Both the position numbers and the translations under genes were made by a program. 64,000 nucleotides of DNA from Kiritimatiellia bacterium. Its GTDB lineage: Bacteria > Verrucomicrobiota > Kiritimatiellia > RFP12 > UBA1067. The DNA is taken from assembly GCA_045537795.1 (NCBI GenBank), contig JAZSQE010000051.1:8313-72312 (forward strand). Reading direction: 5' to 3'. Of this stretch, positions 1,083 to 30,724 are shown piece after piece (position 1 is the stretch's first letter; each line of letters begins with the position of its first letter). Below the pieces are notes generated by a model. It was not told where the DNA came from and searched no databases. It worked only from the letters and a program-made list of their open reading frames with translations.

Positions 1083-1093
1083 GGAGCAGAAAT

Positions 1094-16000: not shown

Positions 16001-19000
16001 GCCCCTGTCTGGGACAAGCTTGATATTGACGGCGACGGAATTCCCGACATCGAAGACGATGATCCCGTCTTTGACAATTCCGCTGACGCGATTGAAAGTG
16101 ACGTCATGGCCTATCAGGAGAAGAAGATGCTCTGCGTCCAGATCGGCACGACCAGCGATGAGGCTTCGATGAGTTGGTACATTGTCGCCGATCCTGAACT
16201 TGAGACGAATGTTCTTGAGCAGGTCAACGGCGCTTTGATTGTTCCCAGAGGCACAAAGGCTTCGTCTCTTAATTCGCTTAAGAAGGTGTACCTTTACGGC
16301 AACAAGAAGACGTCGCCCTTCGGCATGGGTCTCGGCGTCAAGTTGACCGACGGTCAGGTCTATGCCTCCGAATACAAGAATATCGCTTTGGTCCACGCGC
16401 AGGTGTTTGATGAGAACGGCTTCAATCCCAACACCGCCAACGCCATGACTCCCGAAGAGGAATGGGTCAACACCAAGAAGTTCACTTCGCTCGATAAGTA
16501 CATCGTTACGAATTATCTCCACGCGGTCGGAGCTCTTCCCGACACGACGATCTGGACGAATTATGTGTTGAGCGCGAGACGTCTTGACTTTGAGTATGAC
16601 GGTATTCCGGACGGCTGGGAGCTCTACGTGATGAGCGGCCCTGCGGGCGCCGGCAAGCTTGCCGCCTACTCACCGTGGGTCTTCGATGACCGCGAATTCG
16701 ACGCTGACAACGACGGCCTCGGCCAGCTTAACGAATATGCCGGCGGCAATAACCCGACCGATCCGTGGAACGCCGATACAAACGGCGACGGCATCGGCGA
16801 CAATGACGCGTTCAACTACGGTCTCAAGGGCGAGGGTGGTCTTCGCCGCGACGGCGATAACGATCAGCTTTCGAACTTCATGGAATTCATGATTTCGAAC
16901 CTCGACGGCTTCCCCGTGCTTGATGCGGGCAGGATGGCGACTTATGGCGAGAAGTTCGGCGGCGACCAGGTCGTACCCGACTACTTTATCCGTCACGGCA
17001 GTCTCTACCTCGGCGAAATGTTCACCGACCACGACTTCATCGAAGATTGGATTGAGGACGCCGATGAACTTTTCCGCAACGACAACAAGGCATCCCGCTT
17101 TGTCTATGACGCCAATAAGGACGGAGATGATGACGGTTGGGACAACTGGTCCGAGGCTCGTGCATATCTCGCTGCTGAAAAGGGAATTGCGTACAATGTC
17201 GTTACTAACGGCTCTGTGATTATCAGCAATGCCTATGAAGTGTCGCTCTATAACGGCAAACCTACCCCGACAGGCCGTATAAAGGTCATTTACAACGGCA
17301 CCCGCGCCTGGGTCGGCAATATTGTCGTCCAGTCCTACCGCTACCGTGACGGTAAGAATCCGCCGATGACGTATCTGCCCGATTGCACGTGGACGCTGCC
17401 CGTCGCTGATCGTTCGGACTATTACGAACTCGGCTCCGTCACGAACGGCTACGTCGCCGGCGGCAGGAATATGTTTGTCGTCTTTAACGACGAAAACACC
17501 GACGGTCTTTGGACGGCTGGCGAACCTTACGGCATCGTCGCCGAGGTGAATGTCGGCTATAATAACATCGCCGATTCCTCAGTCGAACTCACCGACATCA
17601 ATTCGTCGATGATCCGCATCGATATGCCCAACGCGATTTCGCAGAGCACTTTCGCCGAACAGAACCTCATGACCGACCGCGGCGTCAACATGCGCCCCGG
17701 TTTCGCCAGCGAGGCTCTTTCGAACGCCGTCGCGATGGTTTCCGCCAACAACGTGAGAGTGCGCGTGCTGCGTACCGCGGTGAACGACCGCACAAGTTTC
17801 AAATCGGGAACGAAAACTTATTACGTGCTCGACACCGTCGTCGACGAGTATATTGATATGCTTAACAGTCCCGTGCTTTCCGAACGTGTGCTACTCAGGT
17901 CCGGCAAGTTCGATCTCGACTGGGGCAACGATCTGGACGCCATTACGAAATCGCAGAATCTGGCCATCGCCAATCTGAGCAAGATAAGCTACGCCGTCCT
18001 TTTCGGCGAAGGTGAGGTTGTTGGCTCCGCGCTGGTCTCGAAACTCAACTGTCTCGACATCAACTTCGTCGTGCCGTTCGAAACGGGTTCAGCTCAGACG
18101 CCTGCGGTGCCTACGGGCCTTATAGGCGATGCCGTGGGGAACCGTCCGACGTTCGGCTGGACTCACGCCAATTCCGTCGCCAAGGATTATCCGGCTTTCC
18201 GCCTGCGCATCTGCAGAAAGAGCGACGACTCGCTCGTGTACGATTCCGGCGCGCAGAAGGCGCCCGCGAAACGTTCCGACGGCGTTTACGGTTGGGCCGC
18301 GCCCGTGTATGTCGGCGCTGAACTTGAAAGCGGAGTCGATTATTACTACACTGTCTCCATGCTTGACGCCAAGTTCACCGCTCCGAACGCGAACGAAACG
18401 AAGAGTTACTTCAGACTCAACGTCAACAGCGCCGCCGGTGGGCTCGCCGATTACGGTCTTATACCTGTGGCGGTCAAGTATTTCGGTCCTGGCGATACCA
18501 ATGCAGACATCCGCGTCGAAGCGTATACTTCGCCCGACTTCGTCGAAGCGTGTACTTCGCCTGACTTCTCGGGCAAGCCTTACGGCGCGGCGTACGTCAA
18601 GCACACCGATACGCTCGCCGCGACCAACATGGTCGAACTTAACGCGATGGTGACGGGGCTCCCGCTCGGCAAGAGCTACTACATACTCGCCTACATCGAC
18701 ACGAACGGCAACGGCGTGCGCGATGACTGGGAATCGTGGGGCTACGGCAACTTCGTCGGCACCGAGCGCAAGGACGTTTACACGCCGCGCGCATACGAGC
18801 TCGCCGCGAAGGAAGTCAACGACGGCACGGTGCCCGACTGCGTCATCTACATCGAAGACGCTGATACGAACGACAACAAGATACCCGATGTCTGGGAATG
18901 GAACAAGGACGGCAAGCTCGGCGGCGCATCCGTCACGTCCGATGCGCAGAGCGTTTCGCCTTACATCGTGACGTTCACGAACGGCACGTCTATGACGGCG

Positions 19001-19462
19001 ATCAATCTGTTCGTCAAGCTCGACGGCGGCGCTGTCAGTCTGCCCTATTATTCGATGCTGACCGAGATGCAGAACGGCAAGACACTCTCGTCGATGTCGC
19101 TCGCCCTCGCTCTCGCTGGCATCGACAATCTCAACGATATCGACGTCAAGCCTGAAGTGACGATTACGAGCTTCTCGCTTACCGACGGTATCACCATCAA
19201 GGTTGATCCGAAGGCGGAGATAAACGGTGAGACGTTCAAGCCGACCGTCGTGAAGGTTGATGTCAAACTTACGCTGACGCTGCAGTACTCTGACTCTCTC
19301 GCAAGCGGCTGGTCGGATGTCATGTCAACGTCCGAAACGTTCACGCTCTCAAGTGATGCGACCGAGATTCCGAGTGCGAAACTCGATGCCATGAACACGG
19401 CCATCAAGTCGAACATCTCCGCCTCGGCTGGCTTCTACCGTATCGTGGTCGACGTCGAATAA
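1094..19462 (+). CDS. Giant secreted multidomain protein (6,122 aa): PKD/Ig-like modules, many thrombospondin-type-3-like DxDxDG calcium-binding motifs, one LamG/concanavalin-like domain, three large super-repeats
   Basis: Single open frame of 18.4 kb. GAGGAG SD at 1081-1086, 7 nt before ATG 1094. Signal peptide MKITKKLANIATFALTAFATVSMAKA. Motifs include DSDNDGLVDRLEFELGTNPFHWDSDGDGLPDGYE, DSDRDKVPDGWELY, DTDNDGMDDYYE and LamG-like ...FTVECWVKPEG...NWTHIAASYDGDMLRLYVNGV...WIDEVRIWDGARTP. An alternative start is ATG 1079. Confidence 0.85.
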   Translation: MKITKKLANIATFALTAFATVSMAKAADTSGHIVSIEPVNYTSGTKLGVGEKVQILVRLLNEDWEQTKLDKNAFPPKTWYFISVGATSTNLSSALARPQLGLSIGGKIAYAEYVEAVGAYSSGANAEYPYYTDLYFEYTVKPGDLGLPIKLLTSDMKVADVSSSDSHDYCLLNANTKGKNWGAYWTLSNVDGDIAGFHYKDMEGSSDFDVPAKPNNRASHTMDIFLGGANILVQTIDFDDVYSTEDPSAWRDVYPSITDNVATAPRIIGQGGSEGAIVYVWSDNTDVFEPYSPDSADYVVVNGTNCLKVSIAPGSEEATFRLKGGTAAVGTPANIYMSSQPLGETDTIGDTLESSIVKRKIRMVAAPPPSVKITFNSETSPYAKEVDATTKSTANLYEDYIELVITLSEAYSAPVKVALNPVYADNPAIDLFASNYIAVSSVLNLPTGYNNYDTNVTIAAGTKSTIVHLYALGGDLGTASGGINFMPTIADSTANDHYSVKAGCNLRIKDVKPTIISPTAGDSLSADKKTGCPISIEVSDTYRDLNAPQTYTVEVTWDAGTSFTTNGISFKNGIPSQIVASGFSSTATKAKIKVTDPQGNSSQTDYIPVTVAATKKIYAELVDTFSLTAPAITDLQFGENSPAKYLRFRIEPESAANNARMYAFLVPLNEASSNLVTSAAFDEGVMIEGESSVALATTPAALKFLDGTDTTADLRYSIMLRTEPKLDEGSEILDYEPQTLLFSVTNTPARVSGVTYNGGTEIRNGGTIKVPEGIPVTFISTLADDSGIDLTNKLNCVWAIKNPDDYTKPVENTASTNGFDSCSHTFNEEGSVYTVAVYAKDKDYVSGELPRFEFTVEVITQPYIYFSSVTKGEPLDMHAIDETASAINRYIYVNLSQAPDASCTKAKPLSIGITATQIGDGGNLVMSTTNITFTEGVKTGGSSQRIILNDLDGYEEGASIWVISATVLNDNTHSNEQGVVWNEYYASRDFELTVNNVAPVIDSYTPGNSLTNTPSLYSEQVFSIDAKDCNFDLTNDMEVVWTDSSGNTHNRKLFKDGQDWSSVFTNEFVREKDQQVSVQLIDKDGAKSEKIVWHFLVAPTKRVQVTTLGPASSSQTKYATAAGLGKGRVWADASRTVVTSFRHTYFLDVTEAQAGLYAYGYPAAASAAGYEDDGLLKDANGETGRDIAISTSGRSETETYKITSHYKYGATATSIENEWMYDNFFYCWVDTSSTPGLTAAVNGVPKPTAGANVETYADVTLDPYEADKESYEVRNIEAVFSREYLASDNMGDINADGIPDFYVAGYMLDGDVNAVPTTDLLRKNALNDDADYLFASLTALQSSLIPGLPATWEIEGYAFSAKLEIRGYGEHLNDAPSICGAIRGAKPDKVYTDPDTDPKSTLTKAEYLAFIETGLTSDEWSPERPTDPTKEDTDEDGFPDGYEYFYWYRAHVGWIDSSGNHVYLTGERYDPMNPGEPETITANEIKAAFDPIVPVDLVMIDMRDSDNDGLVDRLEFELGTNPFHWDSDGDGLPDGYEVMLAARGDNATDPLMYATTPGIADTLRNFDNDYMASVVVNAKKKQVVVFGNENGHYCAWGNYLGTNIVQFASKFDVTNKFYSAPVMGNIIRFRSGLVVCTTNDVATYTADDGYGNSVERLKGDLLAEDTWVYTEYAPLGDGKNAIAIVGMPRYVKSGAILATNVETGVEFDKLVLYTSQVDEYGEKTGFPWHLDGKLKERIYHVWKYGVSVADPELYGIWAMSGDACIENGTVILDPPQWGTVAKQHYITYAGDGFDPRTAWKGEGSVNTRSYNDYDEFLVSTFFLRNGESGREVWRHIGDTAQTRAYYLDEQRALELLVDFRVEGETTYQSIWAANCTNPNDADSDRDKVPDGWELYVMGGRLKTFTDTFGSLLHPAAGPLAVMSPLWADSGVEKDGDGLSEDAEYAGSESTLYAGVYAMGEPVNPYWTNKKWPSDPWNEDSDDDGLGDGDEMNYFAYGEPSAPGAGGGLNPLSWDTDLDGLPDPFEAEFSGEYTPGESNKVTEETVGQDGTTNTVTTTVTEKGTWDGGMDGSVNDSFADYDADGLLNWQEYMVGAMRCWRYDDTISSWSHNSAMIMPLSEIPMPGTPEWNKYWFERLVLNPHTITENPEANGREYEYNPHLVNGMFDGGNSYFSLCTNSWDGAAGKWYMFKDGIYHDLARPGPEWSTFYGPTKVQLNRFTWWVFQEIGMSPEESVGMVVPYKWGQIGGPTWYIYPIKYICCDPRKADTDNDGMDDYYEIFHGMNPLLGESDVARTTGEPPYDVIFEAYAGRVPEDPAEWSAENNFWLNPSAPINKSASGATLARTPQSKNGESTYDFVAYPWLTGVASADPDGDNIRNQNEAIMQGFQAASTFLHSDPTPLWLTDLSYTGSLTYRYYNRFSSQFKADKIIIKDVPEYFEYDADGDGRIAVDNERWYFNSFPGYVWDSGTGALEIRLYDPFDFWRPVDALYNYEQNEGYDSDHDYVSDFGESQGKMKSASDSQSSDSPVRRQAMWFDGVNSFLQTPLETGESAPVTSLPGISELPFLYFTVECWVKPEGDLSRTQTILERPIWTGYANPGDENYLRRNFWIGIKNSRWSTAFDSAGTDAKQSVEISDGPVATTNWTHIAASYDGDMLRLYVNGVCVKEDKTGIKPEHGISAYSATSAGTLDFNSLSYRFKSLLAGASAASMLGVVFDYELRISPAQKTTIADYKNFYQGWIDEVRIWDGARTPAQILADFKKRYTREECLANRNEAYQAWRSGATFTEHSAVTRPAELRYHFSFDHIPGGVSTDGILKTPAGFTTAKNKTDSMAIWVRPDGWVNPWWNGVSQIASSVYSDRAWVPWINNTVTHLPRFDKTTLDSVYWSENYAGAMPSVEYGFSSFLFPRTAEVFSLWTQMRYELGEPWTTPTRLNVVLNSGKGDAYYNYTFAIRHAVIEGGDMLPFGGAYPKRATTLWDEQGAMDAWAETGLDADNNGLPDWWEQYARENYGVNPFDKIDWNTTVVYNGVSMTAWQAYLRDLAAGLLPSGEINPDYASTVDSDKDGLFDWWEDYWLVSKYSGDDDPDHDGLSNKQEWRVSEDEAGGFGTAKGYPSLNPIRANSLDNQLVPDYFLRYDAARNGGKFDKWYLGEIFADHDMLEDDDEKALGTDPTLYDAWSDKDEDGWTAWSEQRYSTFKMSIVARLISHMNGSEEVIDSPIPVIHTTLRYNGEQGASGTNAAAIVIEAYSGNNLQKKPNALWRIVPGETEERHLYLGAWNRDKVFHGSLVPGHIFPGVNEMVIQYAFVQGKDNFSWEYNGRVFHGTYDEMLAAYMADPMNVFVSAKAFEWVDVYDGMVTNDMRSALQIAIDEKTQKGHFLIMNKKVGEIDAVTGDFTLNLAQFEGLHMSDSHVSLEQSIFRLKYRTRVPTTQTKALPITLGRPDSGSLKEGNTALVAYMDLDGSGTYTPGEPLGFKKDLEIGWDQVPSLTIEMTDASVAAGKRFAYDDTVETLRIIRTAINGQEVLEDGSEVKRRIVYSRNATDVERKTVYEGDLVTAGKFGLDWTGLRSDILAAGLQLKDVTEVTYKVIKNTASLERIDASNTVDTITVGFSAQQTKPSAVSPSVSSMGIVESQRPTFVWTGTDDNTAFMFKISDLAGNVVYSNDMQLLPPRDANGRYVWQAPVYIGTNVCDDIWSLNNSSSYTWQVAMFNAKYSSPLDAVWSDPATFITALAASNDMTTDFGTAKVAVRYYGPATNTLDQVVVALYKNADFTGEPAAQSRLYDIDGAACDKLAVGVFEKADGLYEVNFTGLETGDYYAMAYIDRNGNMKRDRWETWGYANNIGLGLQAIYTPVAAEVDADVAEMPALTVYMEDTDVNQDDIPDCLTEDETILSAATKITAAGADMSDTDLDGLTADEETGDAYTEKTKWDTDGDGMPDGWEYRYADLDPLYPDAETTASGDVMAFAVETGKRVYDAAGVSYLLMTTNDVTYRVGDVVTNEHLSTYYDYKTVVGSGTNLTTVTLCGVGTNLTGTAATFKVDKIEEVSVAYVHAQVYDRYGYSLKTAIAQDGAVNTKPFTALDKYMVVRYLEAIGLADEETMNTSKAWKDFTLKPRDVDCDRDGIGDGWELYVMFGTNGCGFVEGALGAIEKATALSQVKISPWNYADREVDLDGDGLTNVNENSDGNDPSDPWNQHSVYESLVAEGVIPPTTDKFDDKVRRFGIGDSDLYGDWDLDQVSNGQEMWAYYIDYAKGSTLLQDIDPKKASSDESTPDYFRKGVDVSGATSYLGAIYNGAEFIERDARMKLDIADLAMTGTRDLYQAGWDVWSIVRYSYAKSDEELASGVSEELSIANKYTYVMYNNDAENEEGEGYTGTTEAELIEYHHDTLGHQECTSLEAIITAHGGLEAMKQVIREKAANNLRADGFEVPEPVVKFTFLYTGNNALDVTVDAWQTSSFYPERGEQLTASWALQPAFDAGVGYVEAKATARGTIKQGKTRFIAYLDANGDGRLSSGETWGTAEANVGYAGNEVTIRLGDANEAFPVIQLTSGDTNEADRVIQTVAIVRTKINGEYVTPRGVMLRKYDNNVKRTFIYPLDYVGMVDGMDYIGIDGYLARQLSQLDPTTEELPAVEEVTYEVVKLSRSLVNDDKISNTNLNHYTYTRTVIDAETGTESNIYYTVDQTVNEEFTLRYSVTRDVPLEVKGEADSTVSDTTISFKIPTDRAVTKFWLEVNGYVYNEGTGFILSRSIQGDVITGANGEISEYNSGRVILDAKWFAENGVTFVPGEQKVRVALGNDKFPECPTESSEWSAEAVFSVAADAQRKGTMLAKVVHPLADDSEFAGRLTVAVYEKPDLAESVLVKTGLNAGDTIELGGLRVDRGYYLAAWYVKDADDGRESAAERKPYDTWGYVASLGMVTNGFNTAVIKAVDPAMTVMSTNVVYLQDTDWNDNEIIDRFENLKSMIGVTPSEAPVWDKLDIDGDGIPDIEDDDPVFDNSADAIESDVMAYQEKKMLCVQIGTTSDEASMSWYIVADPELETNVLEQVNGALIVPRGTKASSLNSLKKVYLYGNKKTSPFGMGLGVKLTDGQVYASEYKNIALVHAQVFDENGFNPNTANAMTPEEEWVNTKKFTSLDKYIVTNYLHAVGALPDTTIWTNYVLSARRLDFEYDGIPDGWELYVMSGPAGAGKLAAYSPWVFDDREFDADNDGLGQLNEYAGGNNPTDPWNADTNGDGIGDNDAFNYGLKGEGGLRRDGDNDQLSNFMEFMISNLDGFPVLDAGRMATYGEKFGGDQVVPDYFIRHGSLYLGEMFTDHDFIEDWIEDADELFRNDNKASRFVYDANKDGDDDGWDNWSEARAYLAAEKGIAYNVVTNGSVIISNAYEVSLYNGKPTPTGRIKVIYNGTRAWVGNIVVQSYRYRDGKNPPMTYLPDCTWTLPVADRSDYYELGSVTNGYVAGGRNMFVVFNDENTDGLWTAGEPYGIVAEVNVGYNNIADSSVELTDINSSMIRIDMPNAISQSTFAEQNLMTDRGVNMRPGFASEALSNAVAMVSANNVRVRVLRTAVNDRTSFKSGTKTYYVLDTVVDEYIDMLNSPVLSERVLLRSGKFDLDWGNDLDAITKSQNLAIANLSKISYAVLFGEGEVVGSALVSKLNCLDINFVVPFETGSAQTPAVPTGLIGDAVGNRPTFGWTHANSVAKDYPAFRLRICRKSDDSLVYDSGAQKAPAKRSDGVYGWAAPVYVGAELESGVDYYYTVSMLDAKFTAPNANETKSYFRLNVNSAAGGLADYGLIPVAVKYFGPGDTNADIRVEAYTSPDFVEACTSPDFSGKPYGAAYVKHTDTLAATNMVELNAMVTGLPLGKSYYILAYIDTNGNGVRDDWESWGYGNFVGTERKDVYTPRAYELAAKEVNDGTVPDCVIYIEDADTNDNKIPDVWEWNKDGKLGGASVTSDAQSVSPYIVTFTNGTSMTAINLFVKLDGGAVSLPYYSMLTEMQNGKTLSSMSLALALAGIDNLNDIDVKPEVTITSFSLTDGITIKVDPKAEINGETFKPTVVKVDVKLTLTLQYSDSLASGWSDVMSTSETFTLSSDATEIPSAKLDAMNTAIKSNISASAGFYRIVVDVE
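18515..18568 (+). repeat. In-frame 27-nt tandem duplication inside the giant gene (VEAYTSPDF / VEACTSPDF)
   Basis: gtcgaagcgtatacttcgcccgacttc is followed directly by gtcgaagcgtgtacttcgcctgacttc, with 2 mismatches. Confidence 0.9.
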
Positions 19463-19548
19463 TGCCCGTGAGGTTCCGGTGGCGCCCATGCCGAGCGCCG
19501 CCAGGAGCCTCATCTGCGAAAGGCCCAGGAATTTAAAGGAACTCTAAA

Positions 19549-20721
19549 ATGAAAACCGAAAAACATTCGAACATTCGAACATTCAAACATTCAAACATTA
19601 AAAAGGTTCTCGTCGTGAACTCCGGTTCGAGTTCACTGAAATACCAGCTCTTCGATATGCAGAAAGAAGAGCGCCTCGCCAAGGGCCTCGTCGAGCGTAT
19701 CGGTGCAGGCGGCCCCGCCAACCACGCCGAGGCGTTGAAGCAGGTAGTCGCCGATCTCGGCAACCCCGACGATATCGACGCTATCGGCCATCGCGTTCTT
19801 CACGGCGCTGAAATTTTCAAAGATTCCGTTAAGGTGACCTCGAGCGTTATGAAGACGCTCAAGAAACTCGTTAAGTTCGGTCCGCTTCACATGCCGCCGA
19901 ACCTCGGCGGTATCGAGGCCTGCGAAAAGATCTTTAAGAGCGTTCCGAACGTAGCTGTTTTCGATACGGCGTTTCATCAGACGATGCCCGACTGCGCGGC
20001 GATGTACGCTATCGATCCGAAGTACTACAAGAAGAGCGGCATCCGCAAGTATGGCTTCCATGGTACAAGCCATAAGTTCGTAACTCAGGCGGCGGCGAAG
20101 TTTTTGAAGAAGCCTCTTTCAAAATTGAACATCGTCACATGTCACCTCGGCAACGGCAGCTCACTCGCCGCAATAAAGAACGGTGAAGTCGTCGACACTT
20201 CCATGGGTCTTACTCCGCTCGCCGGCATGGTGATGGGTACGCGCTGCGGTGATATCGACACTGCCGCCGTTCTTTCGATCATGGAGGCCGAGGGCAAGAC
20301 TCCCGCAGAGATGGACAAGATGCTCAATAAGGAGTCGGGGCTTCAGGGACTTACGGGTGTCAAGGGCGGCGACTGCCGCGACATCTGCTCGCGCGCCGCG
20401 AAGGGCGACAAGCAGTGCGAGCTTGCGCTCGAGATGCTCGCATACCGCGTTGCGTTCTATGTCGGCGGCTACAACACGATTATCGGCGGAGCAGACGCGA
20501 TTATCATGACCGGCGGCATCGGCGAAAACTCGACCGAGGTGAGAGAGCGCATCATTAAACGTCTCGCAGGTCTTGGCATCAAGCTCGATAAGGCGGCGAA
20601 CAGAAAGTCTCACGGTGTCGTCGCCGTTCTTTCGACCAAGGATTCGAAAATACCCGTCATCGTTCTTCCGACGAACGAGGAGCTCATGATCGCGAAAGAT
20701 ACGGTGAGGGTGCTTGGTTAA
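19549..20721 (+). CDS. ackA: Acetate kinase
   Basis: VLVVNSGSSSLKYQLFDM... is the acetate kinase N-terminal signature, and the gene has full length (390 aa). The first 17 codons, MKTEKHSNIRTFKHSNI, are largely encoded by an octamer repeat array, so the true start is uncertain. Confidence 0.9.
   Translation: MKTEKHSNIRTFKHSNIKKVLVVNSGSSSLKYQLFDMQKEERLAKGLVERIGAGGPANHAEALKQVVADLGNPDDIDAIGHRVLHGAEIFKDSVKVTSSVMKTLKKLVKFGPLHMPPNLGGIEACEKIFKSVPNVAVFDTAFHQTMPDCAAMYAIDPKYYKKSGIRKYGFHGTSHKFVTQAAAKFLKKPLSKLNIVTCHLGNGSSLAAIKNGEVVDTSMGLTPLAGMVMGTRCGDIDTAAVLSIMEAEGKTPAEMDKMLNKESGLQGLTGVKGGDCRDICSRAAKGDKQCELALEMLAYRVAFYVGGYNTIIGGADAIIMTGGIGENSTEVRERIIKRLAGLGIKLDKAANRKSHGVVAVLSTKDSKIPVIVLPTNEELMIAKDTVRVLG
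19561..19600 (+). repeat. Octanucleotide tandem array, 5 units of NAACATTC, inside the 5' end of ackA
   Basis: aaacattc gaacattc gaacattc aaacattc aaacatta. Confidence 0.9.
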
Positions 20722-20776
20722 TGTTTGAATGTTTGCAAACATTCCAACATTCTGACATTCAAACATTCTAACATTA
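20719..20776. repeat. Octanucleotide array in the ackA-pta spacer: 2 inverted units then 5 forward units, forming a palindrome
   Basis: taatgttt gaatgttt g|c aaacattc caacattc tgacattc aaacattc taacatta. The core gaatgtttgcaaacattc (20727-20744) is a perfect palindrome. Confidence 0.9.
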
Positions 20777-20781
20777 TCCCT

Positions 20782-21819
20782 ATGAACGCGATTAAAAATA
20801 TAATTGAGAGAGCTTCGAAGTTGAACGGAAGCATTGTTCTTCCGGAGGGGCAGGATGCAAGAGTTGTTACAGCCGCGTGTGCTCTCGTTGACCGCAAGAT
20901 TTGTACACCTATCGTTCTGGGTACACCCGACGAGATAGCCGCCGCTGAAGTGAAGGCCGGCCTTTCACTTGCCGAGCGCGCGATCAAGGTTATCGATTAC
21001 ACAAAAGGTAATGATGAGCTTGAGAACGCCTATCTTGAAGCGTGGAACGCGAAGGAGTCGAAAAAGCCTGCCGAGAAGCAGAAGATAATCGACCTTGCGG
21101 CGGCGCAGCATACGCTCCGCACCAAGCGCATTTATTTCGGCGGCATGATGGTGAAACTCGGCAAGGTGAACGGCCTTGTCGCCGGCTCCATCGCGTCGAC
21201 GGGCGATATGCTTCGCGCGGCGTTTCACACGCTTGGCACTCAAAGCGGCGTCAAGACGGCTTCTTCCTGCTTTATCATGGACCTTAAGGAGCCTACTGCC
21301 TCGGGCGACAGCGTTCTTGCTTTCGGCGACTGCGCCGTAATCCCCGATCCTACCGCCGAGCAGCTCGTCGACATCGGTCTTGCCACGGCCGAGACATATC
21401 GCGATCTTACCGGCAATGAGCCGCGTGTCGCGTATCTCTCGTTTTCGACGAAAGGCTCTGCCGCAGGTCCGCTCGTCGAGAAGGTGCAGAAGGCCGTTGA
21501 GCTCGCCAAGCCGCGCTTTGCCGAAAAGGGCATCAAGATGGACGGCGAACTTCAGTTCGACGCGGCGATCGTTCCTTCAGTCGGAGCTCTCAAGAATCCG
21601 GAAGGCGAAGTGAAGGGCGATGCGAACGTATTCATTTTCCCCGATCTTCAGGCCGGCAATATCGGCTACAAAATCGCCCAGCGTCTCGGCGGCGCTGACG
21701 CTATCGGTCCGAACCTCCAGGGGCTCGCCAAGGCGATGAACGATCTCTCCCGCGGCTGCAGCGCTGAAGATATCGTCGGAACCGCGTGCGTAACGCTGTT
21801 GCAGAGCCAGGGGAAGTAG
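20782..21819 (+). CDS. pta: Phosphate acetyltransferase (short PTA_PTB-only form, 345 aa)
   Basis: MNAIKNIIERASKLNGSIVLPEGQDARVV... and ...IFPDLQAGNIGYKIAQRLGGADAIGP... are typical Pta motifs. The tracked ORF start at 20725 would translate the octamer array, so the ATG at 20782 downstream of the array is preferred. Confidence 0.85.
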   Translation: MNAIKNIIERASKLNGSIVLPEGQDARVVTAACALVDRKICTPIVLGTPDEIAAAEVKAGLSLAERAIKVIDYTKGNDELENAYLEAWNAKESKKPAEKQKIIDLAAAQHTLRTKRIYFGGMMVKLGKVNGLVAGSIASTGDMLRAAFHTLGTQSGVKTASSCFIMDLKEPTASGDSVLAFGDCAVIPDPTAEQLVDIGLATAETYRDLTGNEPRVAYLSFSTKGSAAGPLVEKVQKAVELAKPRFAEKGIKMDGELQFDAAIVPSVGALKNPEGEVKGDANVFIFPDLQAGNIGYKIAQRLGGADAIGPNLQGLAKAMNDLSRGCSAEDIVGTACVTLLQSQGK

Positions 21820-21854
21820 TGGTTAGTTGTCAGTGGTCGGTGGTTAGTTGTCAG
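21819..21854 (+). promoter_or_regulatory. Perfect 15-nt direct repeat (gtggttagttgtcag) with 21-bp periodicity, upstream of kdsD and the pilus-like cluster
   Basis: Copies at 21819-21833 and 21840-21854, separated by tggtcg. The repeat lies between the pta stop and the kdsD start. Confidence 0.35.
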
Positions 21855-21892
21855 CGAGAAGAAAAGAAGAGGTTGAAGTGAGAGAGAACGAA

Positions 21893-22867
21893 ATGATAGA
21901 ACGGGCGCGTCAGGTCTTTGATGTCGAAATCAAAGGCCTTAAGGACGTTCGCGATTCGCTTGACGAATCGTTTGTCAAGACGGTTTCGCTTATTCTCGAC
22001 ACTCTCGAAAAGGGCGGACTTGTTGTCGTTACCGGCGTCGGAAAAAATCTGCATATCGCCGAAAAGATGTCGGCCATCTTCGCTTCGACGGGCACGCGCT
22101 CGATCGTTCTCAATCCCGTTCAGGCGATGCACGGCGACCTCGGCATGGTCTCTTCGCGCGACGTTCTGATAGCCCTTTCGTTTTCGGGCGAATCGGACGA
22201 GCTCATAAAACTGATCCCCGCCATCCGCCGCCACGGGCTTAAGGTCGTCTCATTGACCGGCAATCCGAAGTCGACGCTCGCCGAAATGAGCGATATCCAT
22301 CTCAACATCCCGTGCGGCAAGGAGGCGTGTCCCTTCGGCATGGCGCCTACCAATTCAACAACCGCGACAATGGCGATGGGCGATGCGCTCGCGATGGTTC
22401 TCATCGATGCGCAGAAATTCCCGATCGAAGATTATGCGATGAACCATCCTGCGGGCGCCATCGGGCGCGCGCTCGTGATGAAAGTGACCGACATCATGCG
22501 GACGGGCGAGAGGCTCGCGCTTCTGCCGCCGACAGCGACGGTCATGGAGGCTGCGGTCGCGATGACAAAGGCGCAGTCCGGTTCGGCCCTCGTCGTCGAC
22601 GTCGACGGCAAACTCCTGGGCATCTTCACCGACGGAGACTTCCGCCGCGCTTTGGGGAAATGTTCAAACATTCAAACATTGACGCATTCAAACATTGACG
22701 CATTGATGACCTCATCTCCGCTTTTCGTCTACGACGACGCGTATGCAGCGGAACTTCTCAAGATTTTCGAAAAAAAGAAAATCGACGATCTGCCCGTCTG
22801 CAACAGAGAGGGCAAGCTCGTCGGACTCGTCGACATTCAGGATCTTCCCAAAATGAAGGTGCTTTAA
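21893..22867 (+). CDS. kdsD: Arabinose-5-phosphate isomerase (KdsD/KpsF; SIS domain plus CBS pair)
   Basis: SIS motifs VVVTGVGKNLHIAEKMSAIFASTG and LIALSFSGESDEL; CBS region LLGIFTDGDFRR.... An octamer array is translated within the CBS region. The TTG at 21848 is an alternative start. Confidence 0.8.
   Translation: MIERARQVFDVEIKGLKDVRDSLDESFVKTVSLILDTLEKGGLVVVTGVGKNLHIAEKMSAIFASTGTRSIVLNPVQAMHGDLGMVSSRDVLIALSFSGESDELIKLIPAIRRHGLKVVSLTGNPKSTLAEMSDIHLNIPCGKEACPFGMAPTNSTTATMAMGDALAMVLIDAQKFPIEDYAMNHPAGAIGRALVMKVTDIMRTGERLALLPPTATVMEAAVAMTKAQSGSALVVDVDGKLLGIFTDGDFRRALGKCSNIQTLTHSNIDALMTSSPLFVYDDAYAAELLKIFEKKKIDDLPVCNREGKLVGLVDIQDLPKMKVL
22658..22705 (+). repeat. Octanucleotide array, 6 units (48 nt, frame-preserving), inside the kdsD coding sequence
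   Basis: aaatgttc aaacattc aaacattg acgcattc aaacattg acgcattg, translated as GKCSNIQTLTHSNIDAL. Confidence 0.85.
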
Positions 22868-22884
22868 CGAAAGGAACAGCAAAA

Positions 22885-23598
22885 ATGAAAAAGCTGATAT
22901 TGATCGCTCTTACCGCGGCCGTGAGCTTCTCGGCTGAAGCGCAGCAACGCCGCTCATCGCGTCGCTCCACGAGGGGTGCCGACAGTGAAGTCGCCACGGG
23001 TAAGGCCGCCAAGATTCTTATCGAGCAGGGCCCCAAACTCGGCCAGATCGCCTGTCTTCGCGCTCCTTCCGTCGCGGGCGCTTCGATTATAGGCCAGTGC
23101 TACAAAAAACCGCGCAGCTGGATCGTTCTTGAGACGAAGTACGCGACGTTCGGCACCGATGAATCGAAGTTTCAGGATCAGCTCACTTTTACGTGGCACG
23201 TTCTTCTCGATACGAAGAGCGCGACCGAGAACAGAGGCAACAGAGAAGGTCTTGCGCCGTACAGCTATTTCACGACGGCCGTCACGTATTTCAACATTCC
23301 CGCCGGTTCGCATGCGTCGTCGGTCGTTCTCCCCCCGTCGTATCTCGAGCGTTACGGCGAGCCTAAGGCCGTCGGTTACGTGATAACGAACGCCAACGGT
23401 GAAGAGCTTCAGGGCGACTGCTGGAGCGAGATCAAGGGTATCGAGAACGGCAGGAAGTTCTGGGAGAATCAGAATATCATGGATGCGAAGTCCAAGGACG
23501 GCAAGCCCATGATTGAACGCCGACAGGGCCTCGTCGACCGCTCCAAAACGATCTGGGCGCTCGTCAACCCCAACGACTACGAAGCTACGGTCCAATGA
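22885..23598 (+). CDS. Secreted protein of unknown function, in the position of Akkermansia Amuc_1102
   Basis: Signal peptide MKKLILIALTAAVSFSAEAQ. It sits immediately upstream of the PilM-like gene. No catalytic motif was recognised. Confidence 0.5.
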   Translation: MKKLILIALTAAVSFSAEAQQRRSSRRSTRGADSEVATGKAAKILIEQGPKLGQIACLRAPSVAGASIIGQCYKKPRSWIVLETKYATFGTDESKFQDQLTFTWHVLLDTKSATENRGNREGLAPYSYFTTAVTYFNIPAGSHASSVVLPPSYLERYGEPKAVGYVITNANGEELQGDCWSEIKGIENGRKFWENQNIMDAKSKDGKPMIERRQGLVDRSKTIWALVNPNDYEATVQ

Positions 23599-23599
23599 A

Positions 23600-23711
23600 T
23601 AATGTTTGAATGTTGGAATGTTAGAATGATCGAATGATGAAAACCTCCAACATTCAAACATTCCAACATTCTAACATTCCAACATTCTAACATTCCAACA
23701 TTCTAACATTA
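23600..23711. repeat. Largest octanucleotide array: 5 inverted units, an 8-nt spacer, then 8 forward units; potential long imperfect hairpin
   Basis: taatgttt gaatgttg gaatgtta gaatgatc gaatgatg aaaacctc caacattc aaacattc caacattc taacattc caacattc taacattc caacattc taacatta. The array ends 3 nt before the ATG at 23715. Confidence 0.9.
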
Positions 23712-23714
23712 AAC

Positions 23715-25322
23715 ATGGCAACGCGATTTCTAACTCTCAACATCGGCGCTTCCGGCGTATCGCTCGCCGAATACGAATCGGGCGGGAAAGGGCATCTTAC
23801 CCTCGTCAACTACGGCATCGCGCCGCTCGACGCGCCGCTCGATTCAGGGGCGGTCGAAACGATTCTCACGCCCGCTCTTCTTGGCATCGTGCGCGAAAAG
23901 GGCATCAAGCCCGGCAAGGTCGCGATATCGGTGTCGGGGCAGATGGTGTTCCCCAAATTCGCGGCGATTCCTCTTGCGGGCGGGGCGGAGAAGTTCGAGC
24001 AGATGATCCGCTACGAGATCGAGCAGAACTTCCCCTTCCCCATAGACGAGATGGTCTGCGACAGTCAGGTGCTCGGAGATACCGAGAACGGCGACAAGTC
24101 GGTGATGATCGTCGCCGCGAAGGTCGATCAAATAGAAGAAATCACTTCGGCAGTCAAACGCGCGGGATTCGAACCGGAGCTCGTCGATGCCGCTCCCATC
24201 GCTCTCGTCAACGCGATACGCAACAACGGAGAAGGAGCCGATGACTGCATCGTCGCGCTTGACATCGGCGCGAAGACGACGTCGCTCGTAATCGTCGAGG
24301 GCGACAAGATATACAGCCGCTCGATTCCCGTCGCGGGCGCCACTCTCACGAAGGAAATCGCGCAGGCGCTCGGCTGCACGCTTGAGGAGGCGGAAGGCTT
24401 CAAGCTCGAGCACGGCTACGTCTCCGTCGGCGGCGTCACCGAAGACGAGGATGAAGCGATCGACAGAATGTCGAAAGTCTGCCGCGCCGTGATGACGAGG
24501 CTCAACGCCGAGATTTCGCGCTCCATCAATTTCTACCGCTCGCAGCAGAACGGCGGTACCCCCGTAAAACTTTATCTCACGGGCGGCAGCGCGCTTCTCC
24601 CCGAGGTCGATACTTTCTTCGCCGAATCGCTCGGTATCGCCGTCGAATTTTTCAATCCGTTCGAGCAGGTCGGACTCTCGAGAAAGATCGACGAGGAATC
24701 TCTCGGCGTTGATGCCGCTCTTCTGGCCTCTACCGTGGGCGTCGCTCTCAACATGACGCAGGCCGCGCGTTTCTCGATAAATCTCCTTCCGCCTTCGATA
24801 ACCGAAGAGCGCGCCGAGAAGGCGAAGATTCCGTTCGTGGCGCTGGGCGGAGCCGCCTTCGTCGCCGCGCTTGTTGTCGTGTGGCTCGGCGTCAACCGCG
24901 AAATAGCGGTTTTCGAGTCGAGGCTCGAGACGGTGCGGGCCGAGAGTTCAAGGCTGCAGTCGCTTGAAAAGAAGGTCAAGGCCGAAGAGACGAAGCTTGA
25001 CGCCGAAAACGGCGAGGCGGAAAAACTGCGCGATTTCGTTTTGAGGCGCGTCGCGGCGGTTCAGAGAATGAACGCGATACGCGAGTCGATTTCGCGCATC
25101 GGCGGCGCGTGGATCGAAAAGTGGGAGAACGGCAAGATGACCGTGCGTGCATGGCGTGATCGCGTGAAAACCGATGGCGGCAAGACTCTTGCGGAAACCG
25201 TCGTCGAGCAACTCAAAACAAAGGCCGTAGTCGATGCCTCGGGCATAAAAATTTCGGATATGTCCACGATCGGCAAGGACTCGCAGGTCGAACAGTTCAC
25301 GGTGGAGGTGAAGTTCAAATGA
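23715..25322 (+). CDS. pilM: PilM-like actin-fold ATPase fused to a PilN-like TM/coiled-coil segment
   Basis: The N-terminal region of about 350 aa has the PilM/FtsA-like pattern (LNIGASGVSLAEY..., ALDIGAKTTSLVIV, YLTGGSALLPEV). It is followed by INLLPPSITEERAEKAKIPFVALGGAAFVAALVVVWLGV, a PilN-type INLLP motif plus TM helix, and then a coiled coil. Confidence 0.75.
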   Translation: MATRFLTLNIGASGVSLAEYESGGKGHLTLVNYGIAPLDAPLDSGAVETILTPALLGIVREKGIKPGKVAISVSGQMVFPKFAAIPLAGGAEKFEQMIRYEIEQNFPFPIDEMVCDSQVLGDTENGDKSVMIVAAKVDQIEEITSAVKRAGFEPELVDAAPIALVNAIRNNGEGADDCIVALDIGAKTTSLVIVEGDKIYSRSIPVAGATLTKEIAQALGCTLEEAEGFKLEHGYVSVGGVTEDEDEAIDRMSKVCRAVMTRLNAEISRSINFYRSQQNGGTPVKLYLTGGSALLPEVDTFFAESLGIAVEFFNPFEQVGLSRKIDEESLGVDAALLASTVGVALNMTQAARFSINLLPPSITEERAEKAKIPFVALGGAAFVAALVVVWLGVNREIAVFESRLETVRAESSRLQSLEKKVKAEETKLDAENGEAEKLRDFVLRRVAAVQRMNAIRESISRIGGAWIEKWENGKMTVRAWRDRVKTDGGKTLAETVVEQLKTKAVVDASGIKISDMSTIGKDSQVEQFTVEVKFK

Positions 25323-26359
25323 GCAGGACGAAAATGATATTGGCGGCTATGGGAGGGATTTCCCTGCTCGGGGTTCTCGCCATGGCGTATCTCGTCTGGA
25401 CGGCCGTCCAGCGCAAGGGTGAGCTTGACGATGAACTTTCGGGCGCCGTCGCGACGGTCGAGAGTCTTTCGCGGGCGAAGGTGTACCCGAGCAAAGCGAG
25501 CATCCTCGCCGTCGCTTCGAATGTCACCAGAGTCGCCGAATGGAAGGATGAAGTGTTCCGTCTCGTTTCCGCCGGAGACCGCGTCTACGAAAAGACGACG
25601 GCCCCCGCGTTCAAGAACTTTATGGTGAGCGAGGCGAAGCGTCTCGCCGCGCTTCCGGGAGAGGCCGACGGCAAGATCGCCAAAGCGGCTTTTACCTTTG
25701 GTCCGTTCAAGGATTATATTTTCGAGGGCAAGATGCCTTCGGAGCAGTCGCTCGGCGATCTGCAGCGCAAATGGGATGACGTCGTTTTCATCATTGAGAC
25801 TCTCGGCGGCGCGGGGATATCCGAGATAACGGATATTCAGGCGAAGGCGGTAGAAATGCCGAAAGAGGAAGAGACCGGCAAAAAGCGCAATGCCCGCAAG
25901 AGGCGCATGAAGGCGAAGAAAGCCGAAGATGCCGATGCGAAGAAGCTCCCCGTCGTCAACGCCTGGACGGTCGCGTTCGAGACGCGTCCTGCGGGGTATG
26001 TCAAAACGCTTAACGCGTTCGCGTTGAGCGAGCGTTTCGCGGTCGTCGAAGACGTTACCGTAACACGAAAGGCAGATGCCGTCGTCGCTGCGCTCGGTGG
26101 AGAAGAGAAGAAGGAGGAGAACGTGCGTCAGAGCGGCCGTCGCCGCCGCCGCGCAGGTTCGCTCGCCGAGCCGAAGGATGGCGACGATGCCGCAAGGCTC
26201 AAAGACGGGGTCGTCACCGACCCGTCTCTTGATGAGCCGCTCAAGGTCTTTATGACCGTCAAGGTTTATGATTTCAGGACGCTTGAGGCTGAGGAGAAAG
26301 AGATTGCGGACGATGGCGCCGCAGGCAAGGATTCCAAAAAGAAAGGGGCGTCAAAATGA
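25319..26359 (+). CDS. Membrane-anchored protein resembling Amuc_1100 in architecture (PilO-position protein)
   Basis: ATGA overlap with pilM. It has an N-terminal TM helix (ILAAMGGISLLGVLAMAYLVW), a helical region, a charged K/R/E-rich linker and a terminal beta segment (KVFMTVKVYDF). The order of segments matches my recollection of Amuc_1100. Sequence similarity is weak. Confidence 0.45.
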   Translation: MSRTKMILAAMGGISLLGVLAMAYLVWTAVQRKGELDDELSGAVATVESLSRAKVYPSKASILAVASNVTRVAEWKDEVFRLVSAGDRVYEKTTAPAFKNFMVSEAKRLAALPGEADGKIAKAAFTFGPFKDYIFEGKMPSEQSLGDLQRKWDDVVFIIETLGGAGISEITDIQAKAVEMPKEEETGKKRNARKRRMKAKKAEDADAKKLPVVNAWTVAFETRPAGYVKTLNAFALSERFAVVEDVTVTRKADAVVAALGGEEKKEENVRQSGRRRRRAGSLAEPKDGDDAARLKDGVVTDPSLDEPLKVFMTVKVYDFRTLEAEEKEIADDGAAGKDSKKKGASK

Positions 26360-27492
26360 TATCGAGGTCGGCAAAATCGAACTTTTTCGTCGCGCATTAC
26401 GAATGGCTGGTTTCGGGCGTCGGCATCCTTGTGTTTGCGTTGGCCGCAGTATATTTCATCAGTGTTTCGGGTGAGGATCCTTCTGATGCCGCCCGGCGTG
26501 AAGAGGCGCGTCTCAAGCGTCTCGATCCCGGTTCGACCGGAGTGCAGAAAACCGATATGGCGCTCTTCGATGCGGCCAAACGCGTTGCAAAGGCACCGGT
26601 AGTTCTCGCCGAGTTCGATGACAAAACGCAGAACTTTCTCGCGAGCGAGCGCCGCGTACTTTGTAAAAAATGCAAGAAAGCGATTTATATAGAGTTCAAA
26701 AAGGGTGAAGACGGCGAGGATCTGCCGCCCAAATGCCCGTTCTGCGGAGAAGATCAGGGACTCGCGAAGAAGGTCGTGCTCGACGGCGACGGCGACGGAC
26801 TGCCCGACAAATGGGAGAAAAGCGTAGGGCTCGACCCCAAGAATCCCGCCGACGCCGATGCCGACATGGACGGCGATGATTTCACGAACAAGGAGGAATT
26901 TCTTGCCGGCACTAAGATCGACGACAAGTCGAGCCATCCGGATTATCTTGATTGCGTCAAGATCGTTCTTCCGCTCAAGGAGACATATCTGCCGTTCGTT
27001 TTCCGGAAGGCGAACCAGATACCCGGCGGCTGGAGATGCGAGTTCTTCGACCCGAAGAAGATGGACGATTACGGACGCAAGGGTCTGACGGTAACCGCCA
27101 GAATCGGAGAGGAAATCCCGGGGACGGAATATGTCGTCGAGAAGTACGTCCGAAAGGAGACTAGAGTGAAAATCAAAGGAGCCGAAGGATTGACCCGGCC
27201 CGTTGATGTGTCAGAAGTGTACGTCAAGCGCAAGAGCGACGCGAAGATCGTGAAGCTCGTTATCGACACCGCTAAAATTCCCAGGCCTGTAGCTGTTGAT
27301 ATCCAGGCTGTTCTGAAGTATGAAAGAGGTGTGAAATCCAAGGACTTCACAGTGGTGCCCGGAGACGAGATCGCGCTCGGTCTCGAGAAATGGAAAATCA
27401 GTTCCGTCACTCCAGACGGCAAAGGTGCGAAGATTGTCTTCGAGAACGTTCTAACCGGCAAGAAGCGGACGTTGTCTGCGCTTGAACAATGA
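26356..27492 (+). CDS. Membrane-anchored protein with a CxxC...CxxC zinc ribbon and TSP3-like DGDGDGLPD motifs (Amuc_1099 position)
   Basis: ATGA overlap with the upstream gene. TM helix WLVSGVGILVFALAAVYFI; zinc ribbon CKKCKK...CPFCGED; TSP3-like LDGDGDGLPDKWEKSVGLDPKNPADADADMDGDDFTNKEEF. Confidence 0.6.
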   Translation: MISRSAKSNFFVAHYEWLVSGVGILVFALAAVYFISVSGEDPSDAARREEARLKRLDPGSTGVQKTDMALFDAAKRVAKAPVVLAEFDDKTQNFLASERRVLCKKCKKAIYIEFKKGEDGEDLPPKCPFCGEDQGLAKKVVLDGDGDGLPDKWEKSVGLDPKNPADADADMDGDDFTNKEEFLAGTKIDDKSSHPDYLDCVKIVLPLKETYLPFVFRKANQIPGGWRCEFFDPKKMDDYGRKGLTVTARIGEEIPGTEYVVEKYVRKETRVKIKGAEGLTRPVDVSEVYVKRKSDAKIVKLVIDTAKIPRPVAVDIQAVLKYERGVKSKDFTVVPGDEIALGLEKWKISSVTPDGKGAKIVFENVLTGKKRTLSALEQ

Positions 27493-27541
27493 CAAAATAA
27501 ATGGTAAAATGTTATTGAAAATGAGCATCAGAAGGGTCGAT

Positions 27542-30500: not shown

Positions 30501-30724
30501 GTCTTATCACCGAAGCGCGAAAGGCGATGGATGACAAGGTTCCGTTCCTCGGCGACATTCCTTATATCGGTCGTTTCTTCCGCAGTCATTCCGAATGGAC
30601 CAGCAAGCGCAACCTGCTTATCTTCGTGACGGGTCGTTTGATCACGCCTTCTGGTCGCGAGCTTCGCACCGGCAACCCCGATGTTAACCCCGCCGATGTC
30701 ACGCCTGCTCCGAAGGGGAAGTGA
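27542..30724 (+). CDS. Secretin (GspD/PilQ family) with a long N-terminal low-complexity and TPR-like extension
   Basis: Signal peptide MTNIKNLVVLGATIATVFFCNYVSAQ. C-terminal secretin motifs LSAPKVVTKSGENAVIKV and VPFLGDIPYIGRFFRSHSEWTSKRNLLIFVTGRLI. Alternative starts are 27509 and 27521; the tracked ORF begins at TTG 27482. Confidence 0.85.
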   Translation: MTNIKNLVVLGATIATVFFCNYVSAQDDLDSLLKELDGGDKKVEAKKPEAKAAEKPVAEKPAEEKVAEPVAEKPAEEKPAEAEKKSEAVAEKPAEEKPAEVVAEKPAEEKPAEEKVVVKADAKVSASPDAEILSNAVATEQLRRTALDAQARREILEARKCMENDEYTEAVRHYGLAQKLLNDRASSKNLRKECDQGIAEGLYRAAMQEDDLGRREKALELMEKALDMRHPKARRVLERWVNERESVIEDVAVDDIKHRKSEENYKKKHEFIRRHLKRSRDLLAQNEFDEALEECEIVLLKDKYNQEAIRIRKAIQKKRDIVLKQERKASRDGMIADVDAAWRPVYAPNAAQLDEAEAETVKKKTGDDTELTEEQMIEARMKAMRLPTISFKPPATIIDAVDFFRGASKDYDRPDIPIEKRGFNFVLKTPQGALKQQAATEDSGDDFAAAAEDKSTDKGTANGLPPIPTITASDITFYEALKLVCDSVDYKFIVRGPVVMVMHKDMSTAELLSRKYDVLDAFLERMTSASSDMKEMRSAGFGGGNTRANNNEGEENQEKDWKAFFEQMGVKWPEGSSIMYIKTLGKLYVRNTRENLAEFEKVLEEMGSQPKLIEIETRFVEVSQEDLNSLGFEWILNSDYSLNLGNKLGKALGVKEGFFQGDVQNLGKRDPTTGIYTGSDNVIVDPTAPTAGAAWRPAGNYYNGMKPDGNDGFATMANGKRNVGINAFGGTSDMQNGNRYLSTVGNHISGESASVNDQFMRVNAFLGSADLSMILHMLAQRSDTDLLSAPKVVTKSGENAVIKVVTEYIYPQDYDVQLQSSSSSSGSSNSGGSQSAILAVVEPQNFTMREVGVILDVTPTYSEANGGTIDLELKPQVVDEPTWKNYGMKIPFTGNNSALQSFEGIGSIYEFLPGVLAALGATLDDATRNAMAITAVESANSAVANASKTGADSLTYYDAPMEQPFFHVRSIDSKVSITPGSTVVMGGLITEARKAMDDKVPFLGDIPYIGRFFRSHSEWTSKRNLLIFVTGRLITPSGRELRTGNPDVNPADVTPAPKGK
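27671..27887 (+). repeat. Degenerate tandem repeats encoding (A/V)EKPAEEK low-complexity sequence in the secretin N-terminus
   Basis: Reiterated gccgagaagcctgcc/gaggagaag-like units, translated as ...AEKPVAEKPAEEKVAEPVAEKPAEEKPAEAEKK...AEKPAEEKPAEVVAEKPAEEKPAEEK. Confidence 0.8.

Follow-up and report, generated by a model that had tools for sequence, protein, structure and literature searches.

Tandem octamer arrays in an ackA-pta-kdsD-pilM operon of a Kiritimatiellia bacterium as probable arms of decayed intervening-sequence-type elements

Octamer arrays between and within the genes from ackA to pilM

The stretch of DNA analysed here, hereafter the window, covers 64,000 nucleotides of contig JAZSQE010000051.1 (positions 8,313 to 72,312, forward strand) from a Kiritimatiellia bacterium, and the analysis concerns tandem arrays of the octamer NAACATTC in one of its operons, together with their probable relation to the intervening sequence (IVS) known from 23S rRNA genes. 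According to the Pfam search, the window encodes acetate kinase (ackA), phosphotransacetylase (pta), a KdsD-like protein with SIS and CBS domains (kdsD), PilM and a secretin, which confirms the gene names given by a first-pass annotation from the sequence alone. A homology search assigned the gene between kdsD and pilM to a 237-aa Amuc_1102-family protein. The same annotation had reported four period-8 arrays, and all of them were found at the positions it named when the window was read from 19300 to 24000 and searched with Tandem Repeats Finder and by pattern; they are designated A1 to A4 below, with all coordinates on the + strand. The pattern AACATTCNAACATTC (two units, at most one mismatch) matched 20 times in the 64-kb window, against 0.03 matches expected from shuffles. 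As claimed, A1, A2, and A4 end in AACATTA, and no array of NAACATTC lies outside the four places in the 64 kb, where further single units are isolated. The arrays are located within and between protein-coding genes, not in an rRNA gene; scans of the window found no Rfam family and no tRNA, and rRNA is also absent from it.

A2 occupies the whole spacer from the ackA stop codon to the pta start codon. Its 5' arm (20719-20735) reads TAATGTTTG AATGTTTG and holds two inverted units of the GAATGTTN type at 20720-20735, the ackA stop codon (20719-20721) being the first TAA of this arm; its 3' arm (20736-20776) holds five direct units at 20737-20776 and ends 5 nt before the pta ATG (20782). The two arms abut without a loop and without an open reading frame (ORF). 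A4 begins 1 nt past the stop codon (23596-23598) of the Amuc_1102-like gene with a 5' arm (23600-23639) of about five inverted units (TAATGTTTG AATGTTGG AATGTTAG AATGATCG AATGATG), followed by a loop of 8 nt (23640-23647, AAAACCTC), which is also present in the relative L200, and a 3' arm (23648-23711) of eight direct units with C and T alternating at the position N, which ends 3 nt before the pilM ATG (23715). The outer arm ends of both arrays are flush with the adjacent genes (TAATGTT...AACATTA). In both A2 and A4, the inverted and the direct units form the complementary arms of a hairpin, a feature overlooked in the first-pass annotation. For A4, the predicted RNA fold (23590-23725) has an energy of -44.1 kcal/mol (z -9.4); its stem measures about 28 bp and extends to the pilM AUG. 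A2 folded into a 14-bp stem (-21.1 kcal/mol, z -2.4).

The other arrays are single arms. A1 (19561-19600) consists of five units (AAACATTC GAACATTC GAACATTC AAACATTC AAACATTA) and lies in the ackA ORF, at the 5' end, as a solo 3'-type arm that adds 12 codons in frame, giving MKTE-KHSNIRTFKHSNI-KKVLVVN in AckA. A3 (22659-22706) consists of six degenerate units with a 16-nt super-period, in frame inside the kdsD gene, and encodes the peptide ..CSNIQTLTHSNID.. in the variable linker downstream of DGDFRR of the KdsD-like protein. Since three 8-nt units equal eight codons, any such array encodes one 8-residue period, (K/Q)HSNIxTF, and it is because they keep the frame and contain no stop codon that the A1 and A3 arms have persisted within ackA and kdsD. 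An array origin accounts in this way for peptide inserts such as the HSNIQTF repeats in AckA and KdsD. We also identified a fifth short-period array of the operon, absent from the first-pass annotation, which begins at the pta stop codon (21818-21854), is built of heptamers (TGGTTAG TTGTCAG TGGTCGG TGGTTAG TTGTCAG) and is G/T-rich, as in a 5' arm. Inverted-repeat stems are formed by A2 and A4, not by the single arms A1, A3, and this heptamer array.

All these units stand head to tail, without spacers. A CRISPR array was rejected, as no unique spacers separate the units, and repetitive extragenic palindromes (REP) and the mosaic elements composed of them (BIME) were rejected as well.

The orthologous operon in relatives

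Exact-protein look-ups with the Pta and the Amuc_1102-like protein of the window returned no record. The Amuc_1102-like protein was therefore used as the query of a homology search, and the contigs encoding its homologues provided syntenic loci (L numbers), which share the gene order giant protein, ackA, pta, kdsD, Amuc_1102, pilM. One further syntenic locus, L114, was found by an array scan. Its pta is preceded by inverted units, which are followed by an ORF of 122 aa and by twelve direct units. The ORF belongs to PF05635, '23S rRNA intervening sequence protein' (IVP; E 3.5e-20), and also to TIGR02436, 'four helix bundle protein', and its nearest solved relative is 2rld_A. The arrangement ackA, (GAATGTNN)n, PF05635 ORF, (NAACATTC)n, pta is shared by L114, L203, L207, L208, and L211, and the close homologues of the L114 IVP (84-97% identity, relatives L203-L211) are all located between two arms at this same site. 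The A2-type 5' arm after the ackA stop codon is also present in L207-L209 and L203/L211, where it is longer than in the window. Pta of the window is 87-91% identical to that of the IVP-bearing loci, compared with 80-86% for array-free loci, which makes the IVP-bearing loci its nearest relatives by this protein, and a neighbour-joining tree of the DNA places the window inside the IVP-bearing clade. A2 is best read as the same element as in these relatives, which would have lost its ORF.

Every 5' unit contains an ATG, and in L203, L204, L206, and L211 the IVP ORF was called from the ATG inside a GAATGTTC unit, giving 132 aa instead of 122 aa; arrays of this kind thus yield false N-terminal extensions and mini-ORFs.

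In other relatives (L196, L198/L199, and L201) the operon is the same and the arrays are entirely absent. The spacers in L196 and L198/L199 measure 5-7 nt (ackA to pta), 10-13 nt, and 36-47 nt. AckA of relatives without A1 starts with MKKLIRKVLVVN, MKKAINKVLVIN, or MKKNIRKVLVVN (the first or second of these in L196 and L198/L199). Compared with these array-free relatives, A1 has inserted 12 codons, and A3 is inserted in a linker of variable length. L197 carries other units at the same boundaries, namely TTGGTTG/TTAGTTG at three spacers, CTAGAACNN, and a CATGTCTC/GAGACG hairpin; the unit family occupying its three spacers is that of the heptamer array at 21818-21854 of the window. The closer relatives L200 and L202 have kept A3 and A4 with different unit counts, and their contigs end inside arrays. 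The A3 site has arrays of other lengths in L114, L200, L202, L203, and L211, whereas L196/L198 lack an array there. The inverted arm of A4 has about five units in the window, 3.5 in L200, and three to four in L114 and L202, and its direct arm is absent in L114. The copies inside coding sequence are in frame in all of six relatives. Since the arrays are absent or different in relatives, they are lineage-specific, labile gains at gene boundaries and not conserved regulatory sites.

This result bears on the first of three roles suggested in the first-pass annotation, in which a DNA-binding regulator acting on the ackA-pta-kdsD-pilM region would bind the repeated units. The occurrence of four one-unit arrays within 4.2 kb and of zero in the remaining 60 kb would fit such a regulator. 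However, the same operon does without the arrays in L196, L198/L199, and L201 and has other units in L197, NAACATTC arrays stand at unrelated genes in many phyla, and the arrays are located inside ORFs and after stop codons, not at promoters, so that the proposal is barely credible.

The arrays might also be mRNA cis-elements selected by the host, in which intercistronic stems set processing or stability and an unstructured, G-poor, C/A/U-rich leader drives Shine-Dalgarno-independent translation of pta and pilM. The 3' arms indeed end 3-5 nt before the pta and pilM starts, in place of a purine-rich Shine-Dalgarno-like sequence in relatives, the strong A4 stem takes in the AUG, and the G-poor arm is preferentially the 3' arm. 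We nevertheless consider this explanation decidedly unlikely, because the arrays are not conserved in orthologous operons (in L196 and L198 the genes are coupled across 5-7 nt), the same arrays occur within coding sequence as A1 and A3, mismatches between arms are not biased to G.U over A.C, and the unit number drifts among near-identical strains.

As for the genes around these arrays, a single 6165-aa ORF (965-19462) lies directly upstream of ackA, and the giant genes of syntenic relatives encode 2234 to >5253 aa with faint Laminin_G_3/TSP3_bac matches. The region from 22885 to 30724 encodes the Amuc_1102-like protein (PF28178), PilM, two unassigned proteins, and the secretin. Amuc_1100 (PF28028) is also found in relatives, and the Akkermansia-type pilus-like cluster is a conserved feature of these gut Kiritimatiellae. 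Elsewhere in the window, 59096-59207 and 62780-62817 contain imperfect 12-nt repeats (ATGACGTAATAA / ATGTCGGGATAA) and three copies of AAGGGAACAAGT, the latter just upstream of an ATG at 62820.

IVP genes within repeat arms and the decay of the element

Exact three-unit arrays of NAACATTC occur at more than 115 places in reference genomes of many phyla. Among the matches listed, 27 places are in four Kiritimatiellae metagenome-assembled genomes (MAGs), with several per MAG, and the other phyla are Bacteroidota, Verrucomicrobiota, Lentisphaerota, Planctomycetota, and candidate phyla. A selfish microsatellite-like element, another of the roles suggested at first, comes closest of the three, except that it had been called genome-specific. 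The same matches include 39 adjacent pairs of reverse-complement arrays, in 28 of which the G-rich arm comes first, and an IVP ORF or remnant at 8 of 115 loci, always beside or between arrays. Array orientation relative to genes showed no clean bias in these genome loci according to crude ORF calls, which are unreliable in GC-rich loci.

An initial profile of three sequences missed divergent IVPs and was replaced by an 80-sequence profile together with phmmer. When metagenomes were scanned with three aligned IVPs, 80 loci were recovered (33-55% identity), including 62 ORFs with 150 nt on both sides. A period-7/8 array was present within 150 nt on both sides in 32 of the 62, upstream only in 8, downstream only in 16, and on neither side in 6, which means that 56 of the 62 ORFs have an array on at least one side, compared with 54 of 1039 control windows (5.2%) taken at least 300 nt away. 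When the upstream flank was compared with the reverse complement of the downstream flank, the median score was 40, against 17.5 for the direct comparison and 16 for flanks of different loci. The unit pairs vary by element (ATAACTGA/TCAGTTAT, AATGTGCC/GGCACATT, GAATATC/GATATTC, AATTTGAA/TTCAAATT), while 39 of 50 5'-arm units contain AAT and 18 of 50 contain AATG; C is scarce in the 5' arm and G in the 3' arm. The IVP genes mostly share the orientation of the adjacent gene (upstream 68 to 5, downstream 54 to 5), at a gap of about 50 nt, and the neighbouring operon partners include leuC/leuD, accB/accC, two ketoacyl synthases, two acyl-CoA dehydrogenases, infB, and era.

On finished plasmids, five of six IVP genes are flanked by 7-8-nt arrays, the hosts being Riemerella, Nostoc ATCC 53789, Nostoc PCC 7120, Trichormus variabilis, and Nostoc punctiforme. 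The arrays around the IVP gene on the Nostoc and Trichormus plasmids (L221, L223, L224, and L225) are heptameric (GGGAAAA/CCCTTTT, TCAGGAG/CTCCTGA, CTTCTGC). An assembly artefact, which the first-pass annotation had named as one of the findings that would undo it, was rejected, as the arrays recur in many independent assemblies as well as in the finished plasmids. Viral contigs had arrays at only 8 places and yielded no relative of this IVP subfamily, so that a phage vector is not indicated. In the searchable literature PF05635 is termed functionally uncharacterised, and repeat arms, operon insertion, or ORF-less arrays are not described there as general features of the family. Our results suggest that in many bacterial phyla the very common PF05635 family rides in hairpins built of tandem repeats of 7-8 bases.

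The arms outlast the loss of the ORF, and the path from an ORF-bearing element to bare arrays is documented by four loci. L006 has a full IVP ORF between (ATGGAAWA)n and (TTCCAAYA)n, in which TTCCAACA is a rotation of AACATTCC, the unit of the window. L047 and L073, both in another MAG, have arms of the L006 type around differing internal deletions of the L006-type ORF, and L113 retains an IVP remnant of 78 residues. Unit number is labile as well. The identical IVP protein P0125 is encoded on contigs of different samples whose 5' arm has 6, 8, or 10 units and whose 3' arm has 3 or 4, indicating that unit number changes faster than protein sequence, and it changes in whole-unit steps.

This variation among close strains bears out one part of the remaining role proposed in the first-pass annotation, that of contingency loci, in which one 8-nt unit gained or lost would switch the frame of ackA or kdsD or alter pilM expression; moreover, an 8-nt unit does shift the frame, and a pilus-like gene cluster lies downstream of A4. 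The switch itself is very improbable, as the affected genes are housekeeping genes, the units are imperfect (N varies and A3 is degenerate), which damps slippage, the coding copies of the six relatives are all in frame, and the same arrays occur at unrelated genes in many genomes.

Several further features of these loci were observed. In the Kiritimatiellae MAG46 and MB2.95_2, a 9-nt array (TCTAAACCT)n plus CATTC precedes AACATTC arrays (L007, L020, L048, L049, and L092), and such composite arms recur at many loci of the two. In L047 (~7080-7115), L073 (~168-205), and L095 (~1100-1110), the 3' arm is followed by about 35 conserved nt (..GTATTATCCTGAAGAACC..), and judging from this stretch the mobile unit may extend beyond the arrays. 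Short-read contigs end inside arrays (at the start in L114, L204, L205, and L210 and at the end in L200 and L202), and contigs with this IVP family are mostly <4 kb, the arrays being assembly breakpoints.

On this evidence, the arrays of the window are probably the arms of ORF-less, decayed copies of an IVS-type foldback element. An intact element would consist of a 5' arm in which G/T-rich units of 7-8 nt are repeated in tandem (here GAATGTTN), a PF05635/TIGR02436 gene for a four-helix-bundle protein (S23p/IVP, Avd-like), and a complementary 3' arm (NAACATTC), and would be placed in sense orientation in the spacer of two co-transcribed genes, from stop codon to start codon. A2 and A4 would then be ORF-less hairpins, and A1 and A3 half-arms that are translated in frame. 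Unit number presumably changes by slipped-strand mispairing or unequal exchange. Paired arms would form long stems in the polycistronic RNA, and by analogy with the Coxiella IVS the A4 stem may be a substrate of RNase III and may occlude the pilM start. For the host, the arrays are likely to be selfish or near-neutral and not binding sites of a regulator.

Several observations weigh against this reading. Profile and phmmer searches found no IVP (PF05635) ORF or remnant in the 64-kb window, the partner arm is missing for A1, A3, and the heptamer array at 21818-21854, and a target-site duplication is not readable because the empty sites are too diverged. The arm-to-arm mismatches, 76 of the G.U type and 80 of the A.C type, have no G.U excess and hence give no sign of selection for pairing in the sense RNA. 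In a neighbour-joining tree of the protein the window falls outside the IVP-bearing clade, as its sister, so that the ORF may have been gained after the arms. Finally, no IVP lies near 107 of the 115 AACATTC-array loci among the matches listed, and arrays may accordingly arise or spread without the protein. The last two points, along with the frequency of solo arms of both types, are what would be expected if the arrays were primary, that is, if a slippage-prone hairpin microsatellite arose alone in AT-poor-tolerant spacers and mobile IVP ORFs landed in the hairpin loops. We regard such an order of events as unlikely, since each IVP lineage has its own matching arm pair, the ORF start is often in the last 5' unit, arms and ORF pieces are shared jointly by copies at different loci, and decayed ORFs between intact arms give the direction from ORF-bearing to ORF-less.

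Beyond the decayed IVS-type copies of the window, we tentatively propose, with considerable doubt about the proposal as a whole, that PF05635/TIGR02436 proteins, which rank among the most frequent uncharacterised small proteins of bacteria, mark a large undescribed class of bacterial foldback elements. Arms in this class would be tandem 7-8-nt repeats with an AATG/CATT core, and the elements would occupy rRNA genes, spacers of operons, and even coding sequence across many phyla. Its members would survive mostly as ORF-less arrays, perhaps including the short tandemly repeated repetitive (STRR) heptamers of cyanobacteria, and the repeat units may be bound by the Avd-like protein, which may also help to copy the arms or the element. 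The reading of the arrays as decayed IVS-type copies itself predicts that the IVP binds repeat units, that RNase III cuts the arm stems, and that arrays track PF05635 across genomes. This origin of the arrays would tie short-period repeats to a very widespread protein family, would give a concrete source for the short-period tandem repeats that break metagenome assemblies (L114, L200, L202, L204, and L210 end inside them), and would extend the idea of an 'intervening sequence' from rRNA to ordinary operons and coding sequence.

Comparison with known systems

The Correia/NEMIS-type miniature inverted-repeat transposable elements of Neisseria are small, ORF-less, intergenic inverted-repeat elements that are co-transcribed and whose hairpins are cleaved by RNase III. 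Their arms are unique 26-bp terminal repeats with a TA target duplication, and we know of no four-helix-bundle gene associated with them. ORF-less inverted repeats are common to these elements and the window, whereas arms made of tandem arrays are found in the window only. The STRR heptamers of heterocystous cyanobacteria are dispersed 7-nt arrays in spacers and even inside a structured RNA gene; they share short-unit arrays with the window and differ in units and phylum. The heptamer arrays that flank the IVP genes of Nostoc and Trichormus suggest, by analogy, a link to these classical STRR heptamers. Eukaryotic foldback transposons also have long inverted arms of variable short tandem repeats, sometimes with a gene in the loop and mostly without one, but they are far larger and involve an unrelated protein, so that the likeness is an analogy only.

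The Avd protein of diversity-generating retroelements belongs to a four-helix-bundle family in common with IVP (PMC10053308). Unlike Avd, the IVP genes adjoin leuC/leuD, accB/accC, and ackA/pta, with no reverse transcriptase or template/variable repeat pair adjacent. A diversity-generating retroelement was rejected on this basis, the IVP neighbours being housekeeping operon partners with no reverse transcriptase among the ten scanned.

The closest known system is the 23S rRNA IVS of Coxiella burnetii and Leptospira, which carries an S23p/IVP ORF (PMC4990558). In Coxiella, its 5' arm contains two to three tandem heptamers (GACAGAT) whose number varies among strains, the stem is cut by RNase III in vitro, with the 5' cut at the first of the heptamers, ORF decay has been described, and the element is regarded as selfish (PMC4990558). 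The first-pass annotation had recognised no known pattern in the arrays, which holds for CRISPR and REP but not for the variable tandem heptamers of this IVS arm (PMC4990558). The elements described here resemble the IVS in having a PF05635 ORF in the loop of an inverted-repeat stem and in lying in sense orientation in a transcribed unit, a highly transcribed one in the case of the IVS; the window copies themselves share with it the inverted arms of A2 and A4 and the tandem short units of variable number. They differ in lacking an ORF, in being sited in the spacers and ORFs of a protein-coding operon and not in rRNA, and in having long octamer arrays as arms, of up to 8-12 units. Excision by RNase III has been demonstrated for the Coxiella IVS, while for the elements of the window it would be expected by analogy. 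The window copies are best classed as derivatives of IVS-type elements that lack the ORF and occupy a new setting.

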